This document shows positions 4,772-12,073 of a stretch of 43,934 nucleotides of DNA, one piece after another. A model generated the notes under the pieces. The model was not told where the DNA came from. It did not search any database and saw nothing but the letters and a program-made list of their open reading frames with translations. The stretch comes from a virus (taxonomy: Duplodnaviria; Heunggongvirae; Uroviricota; Caudoviricetes). The number at the start of each line of letters is the position of its first letter. Position 1 is the first letter of the stretch. The DNA is taken from IMG/VR virus record IMGVR_UViG_2541047848_000002. One strand, given 5' to 3'. The position numbers were made by a program, and so were the translations under genes.

Positions 4772-4964
4772 AACTAAGCCGCCTCGTTGAAGCGACTAAG
4801 GTATGAAATGTTGAGTTGATTTCAGCTGGTCACACCGACGTTCACGCGTCCGTTTCACCCCTCGCACTCCCCGAAGCCTGCTGAAATTCAAACTGCGGAT
4901 CTAAGCGGTCATCGCAACGGTGAATCAGGTGGTTGCCGTATCGTTGTGTTGTTGCGATGAACTT

Positions 4965-4993
4965 ATTTAAAACTATAGTTGTTTTACCGTCAA
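4965..4993 (-). promoter_or_regulatory. Candidate PL promoter (minus strand: TTGACG-N17-TTAAAT) with overlapping operator-like inverted repeats
   Basis: Read on the minus strand: -35 TTGACG (plus 4988-4993), 17-nt spacer, -10 TTAAAT (plus 4965-4970); adjacent palindrome AACAAC-aaaa-GTTGTT (about 4992-5007) and further GGTTGT half-sites up to about 5040, resembling the OR half-sites. Confidence 0.35.
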
Positions 4994-5133
4994 CAACAAA
5001 AGTTGTTTTATTGGTTGTTTTAGATATAACTGGTTGTATTTAGGATGGATTTATTTTGTGACTTGAATCGCATAGCGATAACTGAAGCGAGGTTATGGTG
5101 GTTTTTTTAACGGTGTGTGTGATGAGGGGAGGG

Positions 5134-5163
5134 GACAAAAGAAAACCCGGCACGGTGGCCGGG
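5134..5163 (-). terminator. Rho-independent terminator downstream of the cI-partner-kinase operon
   Basis: On the minus strand: GC stem CCCGGC/GCCGGG (plus 5146-5151 / 5158-5163) followed by a U-run (plus 5134-5145, reading TTTTCTTTTGTC on the minus strand). Confidence 0.5.
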
Positions 5164-5330
5164 CTAGATCTTAAAGTATTTATCTTTTAGAGATGTAGAT
5201 GCAAAATTTTTTGCCTTTGAAAATTTTTTGTCATCAGAAGAGCTTATGAACTCATCTTTTTTGTAGGGAACCGCTAATGCTGCATCACGTCTGCGAGGCA
5301 GCTTACTTACTTCCTCGCACTTTTTCATGA

Positions 5331-6377
5331 TCAGTTATCCTTTAATAACCTATACAGTTTTGTAGGGGTACATCCTGAGGATATTGTTAAGTTCGTAGCA
5401 CGCCTTTTCCGCCCACCATCGTATAAACGAAAACCAGTAGTAGACGAATTTTCTGCGTCAAAAACTATAGACAGTATAACGTCCTCAGACTTTTTTTGCC
5501 ATTCATATGTGCCGTTAGTTGGTTTTGTCATCTGTAGACGCCAGTCAAGAACGCCATCACTTATAGCTGAGAGATCGTTTAGTACGTCTAGTACGGATTG
5601 ATATCTTTCATTTGGATCTACATGAATGCATTTGTTTACTATTGTTATCAATTTTTTATGTATGTGGGAAGGATACTCTTTTAATGGATAGGAGCCATTA
5701 ATTATCGACTCTCTGAGTTGTTCAATCGTTCTAAATGCAGATCTTTCTCTTTCAAAATTATCATATCCAACACACATTCTATATATGGTTAATCCTGCCT
5801 GATATATGTCATATGTGAAATTATAATCATTTGTTGATAAAGAAAAATATTCCGGTGGCACATGAAAATGATATCCAAACTCAGGCGCAGCTCTCGATTC
5901 CTCATTGACTAACTGAGACAATCCAAAGTCAGATAGCATGGCCTCATTTCTGTTTGATATCATGATGTTATTAGGTTTTATATCAAAATGCATAAGACCT
6001 TTTGAGTGTATATGATAAAGCCCACTTAAAAATTGAATAGAATACCGTATTATCTCCCTGCTCGTAAGATTAATCTTTTTTATTAATTGGTTTAGCGAAC
6101 CATTATGATAAAATGGCATGGCTATATAGATATTGCTCTCACATTGAGCAGCATACTGAACTTGCACAATATTTGGATGTGCATGTTTATAGAGAAGCCT
6201 TGCTTCATTAAAGTAGTCGTCGTGGTTAGTGTTTTCTTTTTTTTCTATTTCTTTAATCACCAAGTCATGAGCTAGGTGTCTGTCATGAGCCAGATATACT
6301 TTTGAAAAACAACCCTGTTCTTCTAGATCACGAATCCATTCGAATGCTACATCAGCTCTTTTGTATGGAGTCAGCAT
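5331..6377 (-). CDS. Hanks-type (eukaryotic-like) Ser/Thr protein kinase, lysogen-expressed
   Basis: 348-aa ORF with kinase subdomain motifs: VIKEI (VAIK-like Lys), HFDIKPNN (catalytic loop, HRD variant), SDFGLS (DFG), PPEY (APE-like); about 90 extra C-terminal residues; about 33% GC; strong SD GGAGGT 8 nt upstream; start overlaps the stop of the upstream gene (ATGCTGA). Confidence 0.85.
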   Translation of the reverse strand: MLTPYKRADVAFEWIRDLEEQGCFSKVYLAHDRHLAHDLVIKEIEKKENTNHDDYFNEARLLYKHAHPNIVQVQYAAQCESNIYIAMPFYHNGSLNQLIKKINLTSREIIRYSIQFLSGLYHIHSKGLMHFDIKPNNIMISNRNEAMLSDFGLSQLVNEESRAAPEFGYHFHVPPEYFSLSTNDYNFTYDIYQAGLTIYRMCVGYDNFERERSAFRTIEQLRESIINGSYPLKEYPSHIHKKLITIVNKCIHVDPNERYQSVLDVLNDLSAISDGVLDWRLQMTKPTNGTYEWQKKSEDVILSIVFDAENSSTTGFRLYDGGRKRRATNLTISSGCTPTKLYRLLKDN

Positions 6378-6832
6378 CCCCTTACCTCCGCAGATAGTGC
6401 AGCCAAAACAGCTTCATTTGTTTCAGTTGTAAAACCAGAATTATCGATTCCATTTATATTACGGTGTGACTTCAATATTTCTTTATACTCGATCTCTGTT
6501 AGGTTCAATGATGACTTCATACCAGATTTTCTAATGGTGTAATATCTTCTTACATCACTGCTTGAAAATGCTTCTTGAATAACAGCTTCTATATAAAGGC
6601 GGTCAATGCTAAGATTATCAGAGTTTGATTCAGTAACGCGTATAGCAGCTAATTCAACATTATATAAATTAAGAATGTCGAGGATGTTATTTCGCACATA
6701 CTTTAATTTTTCTGGTGTGTCTAAGGTCGAAGGTATTTTAATAACATCAACACATTTGAGTGCAGACTCATCAGTGCAATATACAACAAAAGATGTAACT
6801 TTGGGCGCCGCCCTAACACCTAGTATTCTCAT
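6371..6832 (-). CDS. Hypothetical protein, translationally coupled partner of the kinase
   Basis: 153-aa ORF immediately downstream of cI in the same orientation (rexA-equivalent position); low GC; stop overlaps kinase start; no domain recognised. Confidence 0.7.
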   Translation of the reverse strand: MRILGVRAAPKVTSFVVYCTDESALKCVDVIKIPSTLDTPEKLKYVRNNILDILNLYNVELAAIRVTESNSDNLSIDRLYIEAVIQEAFSSSDVRRYYTIRKSGMKSSLNLTEIEYKEILKSHRNINGIDNSGFTTETNEAVLAALSAEVRGC

Positions 6833-6912
6833 TTTTTATATCCCATTTTAGAATCAGGCTGCGTTTCTGCAGCCTCTCTCATCACCCAAATGTCTAATCA
6901 GGCTATTATTGA

Positions 6913-7602
6913 TTATCCATGTTTCCTGTATGTTTGCGGCATGCTCCCAATAACTTTCCCGAAGATAAACACCCGGTTCATCTCGTCTTTCTCGATTGGG
7001 TCCCACGGTGAGTAGCTCTTGTTATCAGAGATAACCAGCAGTTTATCCTTCATCATTTGCAGGCGCTTAACATGGGCTGTGTCGTCGTACAGAAACGCAT
7101 AGATACCATCACCGTCGAAAGATTTAACTGTGATATCAACGAACAGCAGATCACCTGGTTCGATCGTTCCTGACATGCTGTCACCACGCACGTTAATGAT
7201 GCGGATATTTTCCGCCTTCCTACCATCGAACATATGACGAGCATCGTCAAACGAGTACTCAACCGAGCGTAGAACTTCTACAAACTCACGGTTGATGACT
7301 CCCGGCCCAGCACTGACTTCTATATCAAGAACGTCAATCTTGAAGTATTTGGAATGGCTGACAGTTGATTGTATTGGTTGCACTGTACTGTCTGACATAT
7401 TTCCAACGCCAGAAGATAACCATTCTGCGCGCACACCCAAAGCGTTCGCGATCTCCACGATTTTAGTTGTTTGATTAGCTTTCCCTGTTTCGATTTTCTG
7501 AATAGCAGCTTGGCTAACCCCGACCAAATCCCCAAGCGCCTTTTGTGTAAGGCCTCGCGCTAATCTGGCTTCTTTAAGTCTTTCTGAGAGTGTTGTTTTC
7601 AT
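6913..7602 (-). CDS. cI: CI-type prophage repressor (HTH plus S24 LexA-like peptidase domain)
   Basis: ORF 6913..7668; probable start MKTTLSERLKEARLARGLTQKALGDLVGVSQAAIQKIE (HTH_XRE); C-terminal domain has Ala-Gly cleavage site (SAGPG), GDSM catalytic Ser and KRL Lys, typical of RecA-stimulated autocleaving repressors; divergent from cro. Confidence 0.9.
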   Translation of the reverse strand: MKTTLSERLKEARLARGLTQKALGDLVGVSQAAIQKIETGKANQTTKIVEIANALGVRAEWLSSGVGNMSDSTVQPIQSTVSHSKYFKIDVLDIEVSAGPGVINREFVEVLRSVEYSFDDARHMFDGRKAENIRIINVRGDSMSGTIEPGDLLFVDITVKSFDGDGIYAFLYDDTAHVKRLQMMKDKLLVISDNKSYSPWDPIEKDEMNRVFIFGKVIGSMPQTYRKHG

Positions 7603-7706
7603 AGTCCAAATGTACAACCAAGGTTTTATTTCATCAAACGAAAATGGTTGTTGACTAAAAACAACCATAGTTTTAATCTTGATTCAAATTAACCACGGAG
7701 GTTGTT
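7603..7706. promoter_or_regulatory. OR operator / PR-PRM region between cI and cro
   Basis: 104-bp divergent intergenic region; candidate PR: -35 TTGACT (7651-7656), 17-nt spacer, -10 TAATCT (7674-7679); inverted repeats ATGGTTGTT-N7-AACAACCAT and AACCAAGGTT as operator candidates; SD GGAGG before the cro ATG. Confidence 0.5.
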
Positions 7707-7937
7707 ATGAACCCAGCTATCAAAACAGCGATCAATATCGTTGGTTCACAAAAGAAACTGGGCGCTGCTTGCGAAGTTTCACAGCAGGCCGTCTATAAGT
7801 GGCTTCACAACAAAGCAAAGGTATCCCCTGAACATGTCGGCAGCATTGTTACGGCTACTGGTGGAGTAGTGAAGGCATACCAGATTCGCCCGGATCTTCC
7901 GAAGTTGTTTCCACACACCGAAAAGAACGCAGCTTAA
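7707..7937 (+). CDS. cro: Cro-like transcriptional regulator
   Basis: 76-aa ORF divergent from cI with an HTH (KKLGAACEVSQQAVYKWL); first gene of the rightward early operon. Confidence 0.8.
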   Translation: MNPAIKTAINIVGSQKKLGAACEVSQQAVYKWLHNKAKVSPEHVGSIVTATGGVVKAYQIRPDLPKLFPHTEKNAA

Positions 7938-8006: not shown

Positions 8007-8546
8007 ATGCAACCACTTACATACCAACAGACTAGCGGATTTAGCCCGACTGCGGTGATAAATCGTTCTCAAACAAAACAGGTGCCAGGCCACGAAAAAA
8101 TCCGTGATGCCGTCCGCGCCTGGTCGGCTGAAGATAATCAGGATGTCGTTGCCGCACTCATTGTGAATGAGTATCGAGCACAGGGCGGCGGCACTATCGA
8201 TTTTTCTGATGATGTCAGTCGTGCACGCCAGAAGCTGTTCCGCTTTCTCGATAACAAATTCGATTCTGAAAAATACCGAAATAACGTGCGTGAACTGACT
8301 CCAGCAATTCTGGCAGTACTACCGCTGAAATATCGCGGCCACCTGGTTGAGCAGGATAGCTTCATGGCTCGGCTGGCTGAAATGGAAAAGGAACTCAGTG
8401 AGGCAAAACAGGCTGTCATTCTCAACGCACCACGCCACCAGAAACTGAAGGAAATTAGTGAAGGTATTGTGTCGATGTTTCGTGTGGACCCAGATCTGGC
8501 TGGTCCATTGATGGCGATGGTTACTACCATGCTGGGGGCGATATGA
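8007..8546 (+). CDS. Hypothetical early regulatory protein (cII position)
   Basis: 179-aa ORF between cro and O with SD AAGGAG; occupies the cII slot but is much longer than lambda CII; function unassigned. Confidence 0.55.
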   Translation: MQPLTYQQTSGFSPTAVINRSQTKQVPGHEKIRDAVRAWSAEDNQDVVAALIVNEYRAQGGGTIDFSDDVSRARQKLFRFLDNKFDSEKYRNNVRELTPAILAVLPLKYRGHLVEQDSFMARLAEMEKELSEAKQAVILNAPRHQKLKEISEGIVSMFRVDPDLAGPLMAMVTTMLGAI

Positions 8547-9562: not shown

Positions 9563-10281
9563 AAAACATCGCCGCACAGATGATTAACTTTGACCGTGAG
9601 CAGATGCGTCGGATCGCCAACAACATGCCGGAACAGTACGACGAAAAGCCTCAGGTACAGCAGGTAGCGCAGATCATCAATGGTGTGTTCAGCCAGTTAC
9701 TGGCAACTTTCCCGGCGAGCCTGGCTAACCGTGACCAGAATGAACTGAACGAAATCCGCCGCCAGTGGGTTCTGGCTTTCCGGGAAAACGGGATCACCAC
9801 AATGGAACAGGTTAACGCTGGAATGCGCGTAGCCCGTCGGCAGAATCGACCATTTCTGCCATCACCCGGGCAGTTTGTTGCATGGTGCCGGGAAGAAGCA
9901 TCCGTTATCGCCGGACTGCCAAACGTCAGCGAGCTGGTTGATATGGTTTACGAGTATTGCCGGAAGCGAGGCCTGTATCCGGATGCGGAGTCTTATCCGT
10001 GGAAATCAAACGCGCACTACTGGCTGGTTACCAACCTGTATCAGAACATGCGGGCCAATGCGCTTACTGATGCGGAATTACGCCGTAAGGCCGCAGATGA
10101 GCTTGTCCATATGACTGCGAGAATTAACCGTGGTGAGGCGATCCCTGAACCAGTAAAACAACTTCCTGTTATGGGCGGTAGACCTCTAAATCGTGCACAG
10201 GCTCTGGCGAAGATCGCAGAAATCAAAGCTAAGTTTGGGCTGAAAGGGGGAAAAGCATTATATAAAAAGATTTCGAAATAA
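9559..10281 (+). CDS. P: Replication protein P (DnaB helicase loader)
   Basis: 240-aa ORF (MKNIAAQMINFDREQMRRIANNMPEQYDEKPQVQQVAQIING...) matching lambda P by recall; 4-nt overlap with the O stop. Confidence 0.95.
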   Translation: MKNIAAQMINFDREQMRRIANNMPEQYDEKPQVQQVAQIINGVFSQLLATFPASLANRDQNELNEIRRQWVLAFRENGITTMEQVNAGMRVARRQNRPFLPSPGQFVAWCREEASVIAGLPNVSELVDMVYEYCRKRGLYPDAESYPWKSNAHYWLVTNLYQNMRANALTDAELRRKAADELVHMTARINRGEAIPEPVKQLPVMGGRPLNRAQALAKIAEIKAKFGLKGGKALYKKISK

Positions 10282-10433
10282 TGCATTGATTTTTATGTTT
10301 TTTTCTGTTCAGGTTCTATTGGTTGAAATTAATGCCACTGGGAATAAAAGTTTTAGCAAAGCCCTTCAAAAATGTTGCTGTTGTAAGCTAGAATAATGCG
10401 CCAAATTTACATTGCTGAAACCTGGAATATAGG

Positions 10434-11099
10434 ATGAAAATCATACAGTTACAAATGGTATTTTTTTACGATTCATCAACGACTGTCGATTTCGATGGAA
10501 TGTCGTATTTTATTAGGCAAACTTTTAAAAAGAAGGCAGGTATTGAATTAACAAACAATATGATGTTGGGCGTTTTACCTATGGATACCCCACCAGAGAT
10601 TCCTCGTCTCCAATTGTTTTCTATAGATAATAAATTTAGAGTTCAATGCTCACTGCAGAGATGTGATTTGTTTTTTGAACGTATGGATTCTGAGCAAGAG
10701 GTAGACTTACATTTGTTTCAAGAAGTTTTCGATAGTGTGGTTGATATCCATAAAGAACTCAATAAGGATATTATCAGAATAGGCTTGGTGGCCGTTAAGG
10801 CGGAATTAAACAACAACCCAAACAAAGAGATTGTTAAAAACTATCTTAGTAACAACATGCAGAATGATAGCGAAATAATTGAAGATATTAATTTAATGTA
10901 TAATAAAAAATTCGAGTTTGAGCAGTCCATATTTAATTGTCATTTGTCGATTATGTCAGGATATGATCTTGTCAGAGAACAACCAATGCTAGTGAAACAG
11001 ATCGATGTGAATACAATCGAGAGTTTTATATTTAAAGATAAATATACCGCAGAAAAAACAAAAAAAGCCTTTTTAAGTAAAGTGAATGAAATTCAGTAA
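10434..11099 (+). CDS. Hypothetical protein, first gene of an AT-rich accessory cassette
   Basis: 221-aa ORF in an about 30% GC island directly after P (lambda ren position); no recognisable domain; weak SD. Confidence 0.7.
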   Translation: MKIIQLQMVFFYDSSTTVDFDGMSYFIRQTFKKKAGIELTNNMMLGVLPMDTPPEIPRLQLFSIDNKFRVQCSLQRCDLFFERMDSEQEVDLHLFQEVFDSVVDIHKELNKDIIRIGLVAVKAELNNNPNKEIVKNYLSNNMQNDSEIIEDINLMYNKKFEFEQSIFNCHLSIMSGYDLVREQPMLVKQIDVNTIESFIFKDKYTAEKTKKAFLSKVNEIQ

Positions 11100-11113
11100 T
11101 GTGAGGTGGCTGA

Positions 11114-12073
11114 ATGAATAAGGATGATAATAAAAAGGATATAAAAAGAATTGCAAATAATAATGCTATAGTCAACGATGACATGGCAAAAAGAACTGCG
11201 CATCATTCACTTTATTCTAATTCACAAGTATCGAATAGTACATCTACGTATACAGGAGGGGTACAAAAAATTAGTAATTTGCAGATAGATAATAAAACTG
11301 CAACAGCTTCAAATAAAGAGCGGGAAAGTATATCTATCAAAGACGCGGCACCACAAAACTTAATAAAAACCTCTCTTTTTGTTAATGAAAAAGAAATGTT
11401 GCATGAAGCTATAAAATACAGTTCAAAAGCAACTGTGCCGGTGATGGATAATACTGTCTCTAATGCCATTTTATCTAATTACTTTGTTAATAATAATTCT
11501 GAATCTACAATTTCTTTTAATAAAGAGAATGTAAAAAAATATACAAAAAGTGATATTGATAACATCCTCTGGAAAAATATCAATGATCAACTAACCAATT
11601 TTTCGCAAGAGTTGAATAAGAGCAAAAAGAATATTAATGATACTAAAAGAAAAATAGGTAAGGTAATGTCTTCATTATCTCAGCAAACTGCAAAGATTGA
11701 GCAATTTGATGCAACATTATCAGATGCTGAAAAAGATATACATGAGAAAGTTAAAAGCTTTGAATCGGAAGTAATTACAGCAAGGAACTCAATGCTGGGT
11801 GTCATTGCTTTATTTGCTTCTTTCTTTACTTTCATTTCTATTTCAGTAAACGTATTTTCTCGCGATATGTCTTTAAGCATGTCAATCTCAGTTTTGTTAG
11901 TGATATGGTCGTGCTTAATTAGCTTTATCTTTGTTTTTATGGCAGGGATTAGCAAGGGAGGAGCTTTTTTTACAAGCTCATCATTTATTAAGCATGCCAT
12001 TTTTATGGTTGTGCTTTTTATTTCATCTTTCGCACTCCCTAAAGTTATTTTTAATATCTTTGCAATTAGCTGA
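11114..12073 (+). CDS. Hypothetical membrane protein with N-terminal Asn/Ser-rich coiled-coil region and C-terminal multi-helix hydrophobic domain
   Basis: 319-aa ORF 14 nt after the previous gene with strong SD GAGGTGG; the C-terminal about 100 aa contain three hydrophobic helix-like segments (LGVIALFASFFTFISISVNVF; ISVLLVIWSCLISFIFVFMAGI; AIFMVVLFISSFALPKVIF); about 30% GC. Confidence 0.75.
   Translation: MNKDDNKKDIKRIANNNAIVNDDMAKRTAHHSLYSNSQVSNSTSTYTGGVQKISNLQIDNKTATASNKERESISIKDAAPQNLIKTSLFVNEKEMLHEAIKYSSKATVPVMDNTVSNAILSNYFVNNNSESTISFNKENVKKYTKSDIDNILWKNINDQLTNFSQELNKSKKNINDTKRKIGKVMSSLSQQTAKIEQFDATLSDAEKDIHEKVKSFESEVITARNSMLGVIALFASFFTFISISVNVFSRDMSLSMSISVLLVIWSCLISFIFVFMAGISKGGAFFTSSSFIKHAIFMVVLFISSFALPKVIFNIFAIS

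Follow-up and report, generated by a model that had tools for sequence, protein, structure and literature searches.

Organization of the locus

The window (the whole stretch of DNA analyzed, 43,934 nucleotides) carries a kinase cassette directly behind a cI-type repressor gene, on the same (minus) strand. This is the position of rexA/rexB in phage lambda, as the initial annotation had recognized. The repressor (6913–7602, minus strand) combines an HTH_3 domain (Pfam, E = 6.5e-13) with a Peptidase_S24 domain (E = 1.5e-18), and its RefSeq homologue in H31 is annotated at the same length. It is followed by a spacer of 80 nt (6833–6912, minus strand) with a small hairpin (GGCTGC-AGAAAC-GCAGCC, about 6857–6874) and by three genes of the same orientation. 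Gene A (6371–6832, minus strand), the homologue of L0083 of phage 933W, encodes a RuvC-like partner protein of 153 aa. Gene B (5331–6377, minus strand) encodes a Hanks-type kinase of 348 aa, Stk. Gene C (5164–5328, minus strand; homologue of 933W L0081, PHROG 4063) encodes a basic protein of 54 aa.

Genes A and B overlap by 7 nt (ATGCTGA), the kinase ATG lying within the last codons of gene A and 9 nt downstream of a GGAGG sequence. These two co-oriented, coupled frames are as originally read. Gene C starts 2 nt past the kinase stop and so forms a third coupled ORF; the earlier description of the cassette as a pair was right as to the coupling of its first two genes and incomplete, since this 54-aa frame is also present. 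The operon ends at an intrinsic terminator (5165–5134, minus strand; 8-bp stem with 6 GC pairs, T-run), which is equivalent to tM of 933W and confirms the terminator expected after the cassette. The GC content of the cassette is 0.36, against 0.51 in the left flank and 0.47 in the right one; it is low in comparison with the flanks, as noticed at the outset, and not as low as the 33% first given.

A scan of the minus strand from 6832 to 6913 revealed no sigma-70-like site. Taken with the analogy to 933W, this points to PRM of the cI-type repressor as the promoter that drives the cassette. A putative PL downstream of the cassette is plausible in view of operator-like repeats near 4985–5010.

Relationship to the Stk cassette of phage 933W

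The Stk protein of Shiga-toxin phage 933W was reportedly described by Tyler and Friedman in 2004 (J Bacteriol 186:3472) and by Friedman et al. in 2011. Positions 5138–6895 of the window align with 933W positions 9911–11666 (L0083-stk-L0081-tM) at 96.9% nucleotide identity over 1758 bp (megablast). This block is common to 933W-type Stx phages, the same search giving 96.9% identity for 933W and 38 other phage records at a coverage of at least 80%, and of the 5426 complete E. coli genomes, 225 carry the cassette. At the protein level, 336 of 348 residues of Stk (96.6%), 151 of 153 of L0083 and 50 of 54 of L0081 are identical to their 933W counterparts. None of the 12 amino acid changes in Stk affects a catalytic residue. 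Gene order, flanking small genes, the position behind cI and the tM terminator are also the same in both phages.

The surroundings of the two cassettes differ. In 933W, a DUF3024 gene is located between cI and L0083, whereas the window cassette is devoid of it. The homology with 933W ends at 6895, short of cI, and the immunity type of the 933W repressor differs from that of the window repressor. The nearest E. coli relative is no Stx phage; it is a prophage that occupies the argU/DLP12 site. The block 5138–6895 represents the mobile module. The region is likely to be the 933W Stk abortive-infection cassette, recombined as a conserved three-gene module behind a different cI in a lambdoid prophage.

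PMC3681748, PMC3564112 and PMC8008677, with reference to Friedman et al. 2011 (Mol Microbiol 82:567), describe Stk as a tyrosine kinase, the gene of which is co-transcribed with cI; infection by HK97 activates it and leads to abortive infection. Control of stk by pRM is stated in PMC3430580, and the literature gives such control for both 933W and Phi24B. In the Phi24B transcriptome, ST933Wp22–25 change together. According to work that cites the primary study, Stk shows little if any activity in uninfected lysogens. Published work, as cited there, handles Stk as a single-gene system, and no explanation of its silence or of the sensing of HK97 was found.

Because the kinase of the window is nearly identical to the published 933W Stk, it is, as far as its sequence tells, an already characterized enzyme and not a new one. 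The initial annotation had itself named near-identity to a characterized system as an argument against novelty, and the novelty of the kinase has to be given up; the likeness to 933W Stk that it pointed out is correct, the two being essentially the same cassette. HK97-triggered tyrosine kinase activity and abortive infection are known for 933W Stk and are predicted by analogy for the window allele. The locus itself is an ordinary, known exclusion cassette, the value of which lies in its unstudied accessory parts.

Conservation of the three-gene module

Genomic loci (n = 57) were collected with a profile of the partner protein. An Stk-like kinase gene starts a few nucleotides after the partner gene in 56 of them, and the remaining locus stops at a contig end. 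Loci reached in the opposite way, via the kinase, have the partner upstream in six cases out of six. The same coupled order (partner, kinase with C-terminal domain, small ORF) is kept in every complete locus examined. The trio is distributed over Alpha-, Beta- and Gammaproteobacteria, Cyanobacteria and Bacteroidota, and is retained at 26–45% identity and at a GC content from 22% to 59%.

Neighboring genes were called by phmmer with cI and integrase queries and from precomputed contexts. The trio lies behind cI-like repressors in prophages of Proteus, Lampropedia, Acinetobacter, Pseudomonas and Klebsiella. Elsewhere it is found beside Abi_2 and an integrase, beside a type I RM system and an integrase, or inside a tail-gene cluster. 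Gene A also occurs in non-phage islands.

It could be supposed that Stk alone constitutes the whole defense and that genes A and C are dispensable linked passengers, for example remnants of phage recombination genes. The papers citing the 933W work do credit exclusion to Stk only, in the statements they make about it; single-gene kinase defenses (Stk2, PD-T4-6) are known, and the PADLOC PD-T4-6 models match the kinase domain. Passenger status is nevertheless rather unlikely, because the order, orientation and coupling of all three genes survive such divergence, across at least four phyla, in every complete locus, and because all inspected members of the partner family adjoin a kinase. Judged by gene order and coupling, the unit of function comprises all three translationally coupled genes as a conserved module and is not the kinase by itself. 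Neither a paper nor a PADLOC model was found for gene A or gene C, and literature searches returned nothing relevant for L0083, L0081 or a defense system that unites a kinase with a RuvC-like protein. What is new is the undescribed three-part architecture of the known Stk system. The strict linkage to the kinase across several phyla makes genes A and C concrete candidates for a sensor and a brake.

The RuvC-like partner

The product of gene A had been assigned to no recognizable family. This proved too cautious: PHROG 3875 and RefSeq label it RuvC-like, and the predicted structure agrees, showing a RuvC/RNase H-like fold, with the fold search as the sole decisive link to RuvC. The Pfam RuvC model gave 13.6 bits (E = 0.062) where its cut-off requires 22.2, and the NCBIfam RuvC model gave 12.2 bits where 163 are required. 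No match to PDB sequences was obtained by phmmer or profile search, and hhalign with an approximate sequence of E. coli RuvC gave a probability below 1%. The family comprises 448 clusters at 50% identity and consists of stand-alone proteins of about 150–165 aa; wherever the neighborhood could be inspected, they adjoin a kinase.

Bacterial RuvC and RuvC of lactococcal phage 67 share 12–17% identity with gene A. In RuvC, Asp7 and Glu66 are metal-binding carboxylates, whereas gene A has Arg and Arg/Lys there. The Pfam and hhalign registers agree in placing residues R7 and R65 on the Asp and Glu of RuvC, a correspondence that is drawn from weak alignments (Pfam E = 0.062; hhalign below 1%) and from the position in the secondary structure. 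Among gene A members down to 26% identity, R7 never varies and position 65 is held by R or K without exception. Of the RuvC tetrad (Asp7, Glu66, Asp/His138, Asp141), an acid is kept only at position 141 (E140), the 138 position being variable. Conserved residues E68, E82, E87 and E140 could in principle build another active site.

Gene A could alternatively encode an active RuvC-type Holliday-junction resolvase, acting either as a killing effector that phosphorylation by the kinase switches on or as a phage recombination enzyme of the usual kind. This is very improbable in view of the invariant Arg at the Asp7 position, the Arg/Lys at the Glu66 position, the variable Asp138 position and the RuvC model scores below their cut-offs. 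The gene also belongs to the presumed lysogenic transcript and does not accompany exo, bet and gam; it is always coupled to a kinase, not to recombination genes, and is found in non-phage islands as well. Gene A is predicted, on modelled structure, to have a RuvC fold without the RuvC catalytic residues and to serve as a non-catalytic sensor or regulator. The RefSeq name "crossover junction endodeoxyribonuclease RuvC" is likely a mis-annotation, and one that is spreading.

The kinase and its C-terminal domain

The N-terminal part of the kinase (residues 1 to about 261; 5595–6377, minus strand) is a Pkinase domain (Pfam, E = 1.1e-46, residues 21–260). All four motifs listed in the initial annotation (VIKEI, HFDIKPNN, SDFGLS, PPEY) were found. 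The Hanks set is represented by K42 (the VAIK Lys), E58 (the alpha-C Glu), H130-F-D132-x-K134-x-x-N137, D150-F-G and the APE-like P175-E176, together with R258, and its catalytic residues are all invariant in 45 homologues. Y169 lies in the activation loop. With this complete motif set, the kinase is predicted to be catalytically competent.

An extra C-terminal domain of about 90 aa had been claimed, and some 85 residues do extend past the kinase domain. This part (residues 262–348; 5334–5594, minus strand) is predicted to fold into a small beta-meander with a helix at its C-terminal end; N267, W279 and W293 are invariant. No convincing known fold was detected for it, and nothing on it was found in the literature. 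The earlier remark that the partner and this domain were unexplained holds insofar as no literature was found on either, and it fails for the partner, the RuvC fold of which is recognizable.

The small basic protein

The product of gene C is a basic protein of 54 aa and is probably disordered. Its N-terminal part carries a conserved Arg motif, and its C-terminal part an aromatic one (KYFKI in the window). The latter, generalized as [D/N]-x-x-[G/F]-Y-hydrophobic, resembles the tyrosine segment in the activation loop of Stk itself; its Tyr is replaced by Phe or His in some lineages. In each of the 62 testable loci, an equivalent of gene C adjoins the kinase stop or overlaps it. The gene C HMM recognizes it in 52 of the 62 at E < 1e-3, against none of the 62 on the reverse-strand control. 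In the Pseudomonas clade, the small ORF begins 26 nt inside the kinase gene. Gene C is often left unannotated.

Proposed mechanism

The cassette would be transcribed as an extension of the PRM transcript, in the order cI, gene A, stk, gene C, and then tM. Transcription from PRM only would mean that it is made only in lysogens. Stk would act as the effector: a superinfecting phage (HK97) would switch on the near-silent kinase, and widespread tyrosine phosphorylation would abort the infection. An early gene of HK97 (orf41) is said to be the trigger, and plasmid-borne stk is reportedly sufficient.

Gene A would have lost DNA cutting, because Arg7 and Arg/Lys65 replace the metal-binding Asp and Glu of RuvC, and could operate instead as a sensing or regulatory subunit. 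Its ligand could be a phage protein or something rich in phosphate, for instance phage DNA that is branched or replicating. The C-terminal domain of the kinase may provide a docking site. Gene C could be a bound pseudosubstrate or inhibitor, or the first substrate, which would hold Stk off until the trigger appears. It is the anatomy of the proteins that suggests these roles of sensor, docking site and pseudosubstrate.

That the module mainly governs the lysogeny or induction of its own prophage, or maintains the prophage in a toxin–antitoxin-like manner with phage exclusion as a side effect, is very improbable: several unrelated prophages do carry the cassette directly after the repressor, a precedent exists in the kinase-kinase-phosphatase (KKP) module of Pf phages (PMC11341870), which works in this way, and a small coupled gene beside a potentially toxic kinase recalls a toxin–antitoxin layout, but the trio also occurs away from repressors (Abi_2, type I RM, integrases, a tail-gene cluster), and Stk activity in uninfected lysogens is little or none in the account given by citing work.

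With phage exclusion by Stk as the preferred function, a broader view could be taken tentatively, as a reading somewhat short of probable: the 933W Stk cassette would be the founder of a widespread three-component kinase immunity system. This system would comprise a RuvC-derived pseudonuclease as sensor, a Hanks kinase with a hitherto undescribed C-terminal docking domain as effector and a disordered basic protein of about 55 aa as pseudosubstrate or brake, and all three would be required for silencing and triggering. If so, the three-component system would explain how Stk recognizes HK97, and it would provide a first example of a kinase whose immune sensor has been recruited from a resolvase fold.

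Comparison with known systems

Staphylococcal Stk2, PD-T4-6 of E. coli and MAD6 likewise employ a Hanks-type kinase as the anti-phage effector. The PADLOC models mad6 (E = 5.7e-49) and PD-T4-6 (E = 1.5e-36) match the kinase in its kinase domain only, to about residue 275–297. The C-terminal domain of Stk2, PD-T4-6 and MAD6 differs, and they do not have the two partner genes that are obligatorily linked to the window kinase. PD-T4-6 and Stk2 stand alone; the window kinase matches PD-T4-6 in its kinase domain, but its gene is always part of a three-gene operon.

Assignment to MADS (methylation-associated defense system) as its kinase MAD6 was considered and rejected, since the NCBIfam MAD6 model, with a cut-off of 460, gives 114 bits and covers the kinase domain only. 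No other MADS genes were present among the ORFs flanking the cassette, which are cI and the PL-side genes. Membership in MADS, BREX, PknB or HipA was likewise discarded, since the matches are confined to the kinase domain and remain far below the curated cut-offs.

The closest parallel in position is lambda RexA/RexB. The Pfam (E ≤ 0.1), PHROG and PADLOC matches of the three cassette proteins include no Rex family; the two systems are unrelated in sequence and domains and have just their genomic position in common. The lambda genes occupy the same slot between cI and OL/PL, are co-oriented with cI, belong to the lysogenic transcript and end at a terminator. The logic would also be the same, namely abortive exclusion of heterologous phages by a system expressed in the lysogen. 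RexA/RexB realizes it with two genes and a membrane ion channel as the effector, whereas the window cassette has three genes and a protein kinase.

Organization of the Locus

In the window ORF list, one co-oriented minus-strand run comprises the cI-like gene (ORF 6913–7668; Pfam HTH_3 and Peptidase_S24), gene A (153-aa partner ORF, 6371–6832), gene B (348-aa kinase ORF, 5331–6377; Pfam Pkinase, E = 1.1e-46, residues 21–260) and gene C (54-aa ORF, 5164–5328). A sequence scan places a terminator-like hairpin (six G-C pairs, then a T-run) at 5165–5134 on the same strand. Genes A and B overlap by 7 nt (ATGCTGA), GGAGG lies 9 nt 5' of the kinase ATG, and gene C starts 2 nt past the kinase stop. The initial annotation had placed a kinase and a 153-aa ORF co-oriented downstream of cI, which the ORF list and the Pfam domains bear out. 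The coupling of the two genes also stands, while their description as a pair does not, since the third ORF (5164–5328) was overlooked. The GC content of the cassette is 0.36 versus 0.51 in the left flank and 0.47 in the right flank; the contrast claimed earlier is real, and the accompanying value of 33% was slightly too low.

GTTGTT-N7/8-AACAAC operator-like inverted repeats at 7644–7668 and about 4985–5010 flank the immunity region and fit OR and OL of the window repressor. The OR copy extends over the opening codons of the long cI ORF, which makes ATG 7602 the probable cI start. The spacer between cI and the cassette (6833–6912) contains a small hairpin at about 6857–6874.

The early-right region is Rac/YdaS-YdaT-style rather than lambda-style cII: a 76-aa Cro-like ORF (7707–7937) precedes a plus-strand gene at the cII position (8007–8546) with a YdaT_toxin domain (E = 1.4e-28). 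Another two-gene block of low GC (0.31) occupies 10434–12073 on the plus strand, immediately downstream of the replication P homologue, where lambda has ren. Its products are a 221-aa protein and a 319-aa protein whose C-terminal stretch is hydrophobic; neither matched a Pfam or PADLOC family. This block may be another lysogenic-conversion or defence insert.

Conservation of the Three-Gene Linkage

The linkage of the three genes was shown to be strict across phyla. A partner-profile scan of a single genome from each species yielded 57 loci, distributed over Gamma-, Beta- and Alphaproteobacteria and two cyanobacteria. An Stk-like kinase (34–56% identity, aligned through residue about 280–348) starts a few nt after the partner in 56 of them; the 57th ends at a contig edge. 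Approached from the kinase side, the partner is immediately upstream in six of six loci (Pseudomonas, Acinetobacter, Vibrio, a Crocinitomicaceae MAG (Bacteroidota), Klebsiella and Plesiomonas), with stops and starts overlapping or abutting. An ORF of 50–72 aa is found 3' of the kinase in almost every locus, starting from 4 nt before to 5 nt after the kinase stop, and the apparent exceptions also carry a small ORF. In the Pseudomonas clade (L002, L017, L018, L023, L024, L028, L030, L032) the ATG of this gene falls ~26 nt within the kinase 3' end, in another frame. Standard gene callers leave it unreported there, and the 54-aa gene of the E. coli genome match H31 is likewise without RefSeq annotation.

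With Lys plus Arg at 23%, the small proteins are basic, and they contain few hydrophobic residues. Their N-terminal motif is approximately h-K-N-D-x-x-x-Y-x-x-R-[ST]-x-L, with the Arg invariant, and the C-terminal one approximately [D/N]-x-x-[G/F/W]-Y-[V/I/F]-x-[F/W]; gene C of the window ends in ...LKDKYFKI. A profile built from 41 sequences matches the downstream frame at E < 1e-3 in 52 of 62 loci and the opposite strand in none of the 62; among loci outside the profile build, 11 of 21 fall below 1e-3. Scores in the Pseudomonas clade are weak, yet the match is always in the same frame. Conservation of the trio at 26–45% identity makes it less likely that the kinase acts alone with genes A and C as passengers.

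Genomic Context

The trio is located directly behind a co-oriented cI-like repressor in prophages of Proteus penneri, Lampropedia, Acinetobacter and Pseudomonas entomophila, and in a Rac-like prophage of Klebsiella. It adjoins Abi_2 and an integrase in Pseudomonas, and a type I RM system and an integrase in Vibrio. In an Acinetobacter baumannii prophage (L004/L005, 3540–5240) the cassette lies between the tail-tube/tail-completion genes and the tape-measure region, with no repressor ahead; its own hairpin terminator follows. Such a distribution is expected for a mobile defence module and argues against a role confined to Stx-phage biology or eukaryotic-host manipulation. Lysogeny control or prophage maintenance as the main role, as for the Pf KKP module (PMC11341870), is weakened by the non-prophage contexts of the trio.

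The Partner Protein

As modelled, gene A was shown to have a RuvC fold with basic residues at the catalytic positions. The Pfam RuvC match is under the cut-off (E = 0.062), and sequence and profile searches of gene A against PDB sequences gave no match. The weak Pfam alignment sets residues 3–65 on RuvC model positions 1–64; it agrees with the equally weak hhalign register in placing Arg7 on RuvC Asp7 and Arg65 on RuvC Glu66, where strands 1 and 4 end, as the fold predicts. Arg7 is invariant in every partner alignment, including members at 26–41% identity, and position 65 is occupied by Arg or Lys throughout. The position of RuvC Asp138 varies in the family, and Glu140 alone sits at that of Asp141. 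The family hallmark is G5, R7, P40, R47, R/K65, E68, R78, E82, E87 and E140. A library-wide search with the partner profile retrieved 448 clusters at E <= 1e-3, those listed being stand-alone proteins of about 150–165 aa.

RNase H-like nucleases cannot bind metal without their first Asp. Because Arg occupies this position, we infer that gene A would not be a resolvase, in a register taken from weak alignments; an active resolvase or effector is made less likely by the absence of the catalytic residues and by scores short of the family thresholds. RefSeq names for the partner vary between "crossover junction endodeoxyribonuclease RuvC", "RuvC family protein" and "hypothetical protein" (NZ_CP063476.1, locus L064; H31–H42), and the first is probably wrong for gene A.

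The Kinase and Its C-Terminal Domain

All Hanks catalytic residues (K42, E58, H130-x-D132-x-K134-x-x-N137, D150-F-G, P175-E176, D190, R258) are kept in an alignment of 45 homologues (39–87% identity), in which the activation-segment tyrosine Y169 is also invariant. The catalytic loop HFDIKPNN looks to be of the Ser/Thr type by sequence; the tyrosine activity of Stk is known from experiment and is not readable from motifs. The search against defence-system models proposed initially was run on the kinase, and PADLOC models matched the kinase domain only (mad6, E = 5.7e-49; PD-T4-6, E = 1.5e-36). Since, in addition, all NCBIfam equivalog scores are far under their cut-offs, membership in MADS, BREX, PknB or related families was rejected.

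The C-terminal domain (residues 262–348) is conserved in length, with N267, W279 and W293 invariant in the same alignment. Modelled alone with 34 aligned homologues, it gave a confident fold (pLDDT 84.3), predicted as a beta-meander of four to five strands followed by a C-terminal helix.

Published Function and Proposed Mechanism

According to papers citing the primary work (PMC3681748, PMC3564112, PMC8008677, PMC6356687), 933W stk is co-transcribed with cI, Stk has little or no activity in uninfected cells, and HK97 infection activates it, whereupon the infection is aborted. Stk is described as acting by tyrosine phosphorylation and abortive infection. Expression is reported to be controlled by pRM and restricted to stable lysogeny (PMC3430580), and in the Phi24B transcriptome ST933Wp22 (stk), p23 (RuvC-like), p24 and p25 (cI) reportedly change together.

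Gene A could serve as a sensor or regulatory subunit. Arg at the former metal site would suggest phosphate binding, of a nucleic acid or a phospho-ligand; a phage protein is an equally possible ligand. The C-terminal domain of Stk could provide a docking surface, and gene C could be a bound brake or the first substrate of Stk. The C-terminal aromatic motif of gene C is similar to the stretch surrounding Y169 in the Stk activation loop (...P-E-F-G-Y-H-F-H-V...). A pseudosubstrate fits better than an obligatory phospho-acceptor, because the motif Tyr is Phe or His in some lineages. That all three genes are functionally required, roughly as sensor, kinase and brake, is given a little less than an even chance. 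Literature and PADLOC searches found no paper or model for gene A, gene C or the three-gene architecture. A classic Abi kinase now gains two concrete conserved candidate partners.

Comparison with the 933W Stk System

The locus is an already known system. By megablast against phage records, window 5138–6895 is 96.9% identical to 933W 9911–11666, and dozens of other Stx phages carry the block as well. The 933W annotation of this block lists L0081 (hypothetical protein), stk, L0083 ("RuvC-like Holliday junction resolvase") and the tM terminator. Protein identities to 933W are 336/348 for the kinase, 151/153 for the partner and 50/54 for the small protein. The initial annotation had cited 933W Stk as lysogen-expressed and phage-excluding, correctly according to the nucleotide identity and the citing papers. 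It had also named near-identity to a characterised system as evidence against its reading, and for the kinase such near-identity was found. That the cassette shares its identity and published function with the 933W Stk system is almost certain. A 2024 kinase-defence paper passes over 933W Stk entirely.

The cassette is carried by 225 of 5426 complete E. coli genomes (30 at at least 99% identity, 196 at 95–99%). Across the whole region the best match comes from a chicken-meat isolate, in which a lambdoid prophage occupies the argU/intD (DLP12) site. Within window 4800–7364, ~28 E. coli genomes (H33–H42 among the matches) agree with the window at ~97.4% identity from the PL side through the cassette into the C-terminal half of cI, which carries S24, and diverge from it in the DNA-binding N-terminal half. 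These alignments suggest that recombination inside cI may swap immunity specificity, the cassette being kept.

Homology to 933W ends at 6895, just short of cI, which places the left end of the module in the hairpin-bearing spacer. The window differs from 933W in the immunity type of its repressor and in lacking, within 6833–6912, the DUF3024 gene (L001, the 933W locus, 5763–6104) that separates cI from L0083 there. From this end of homology and the differing repressor, the cassette is therefore a mobile module recombined behind another repressor.
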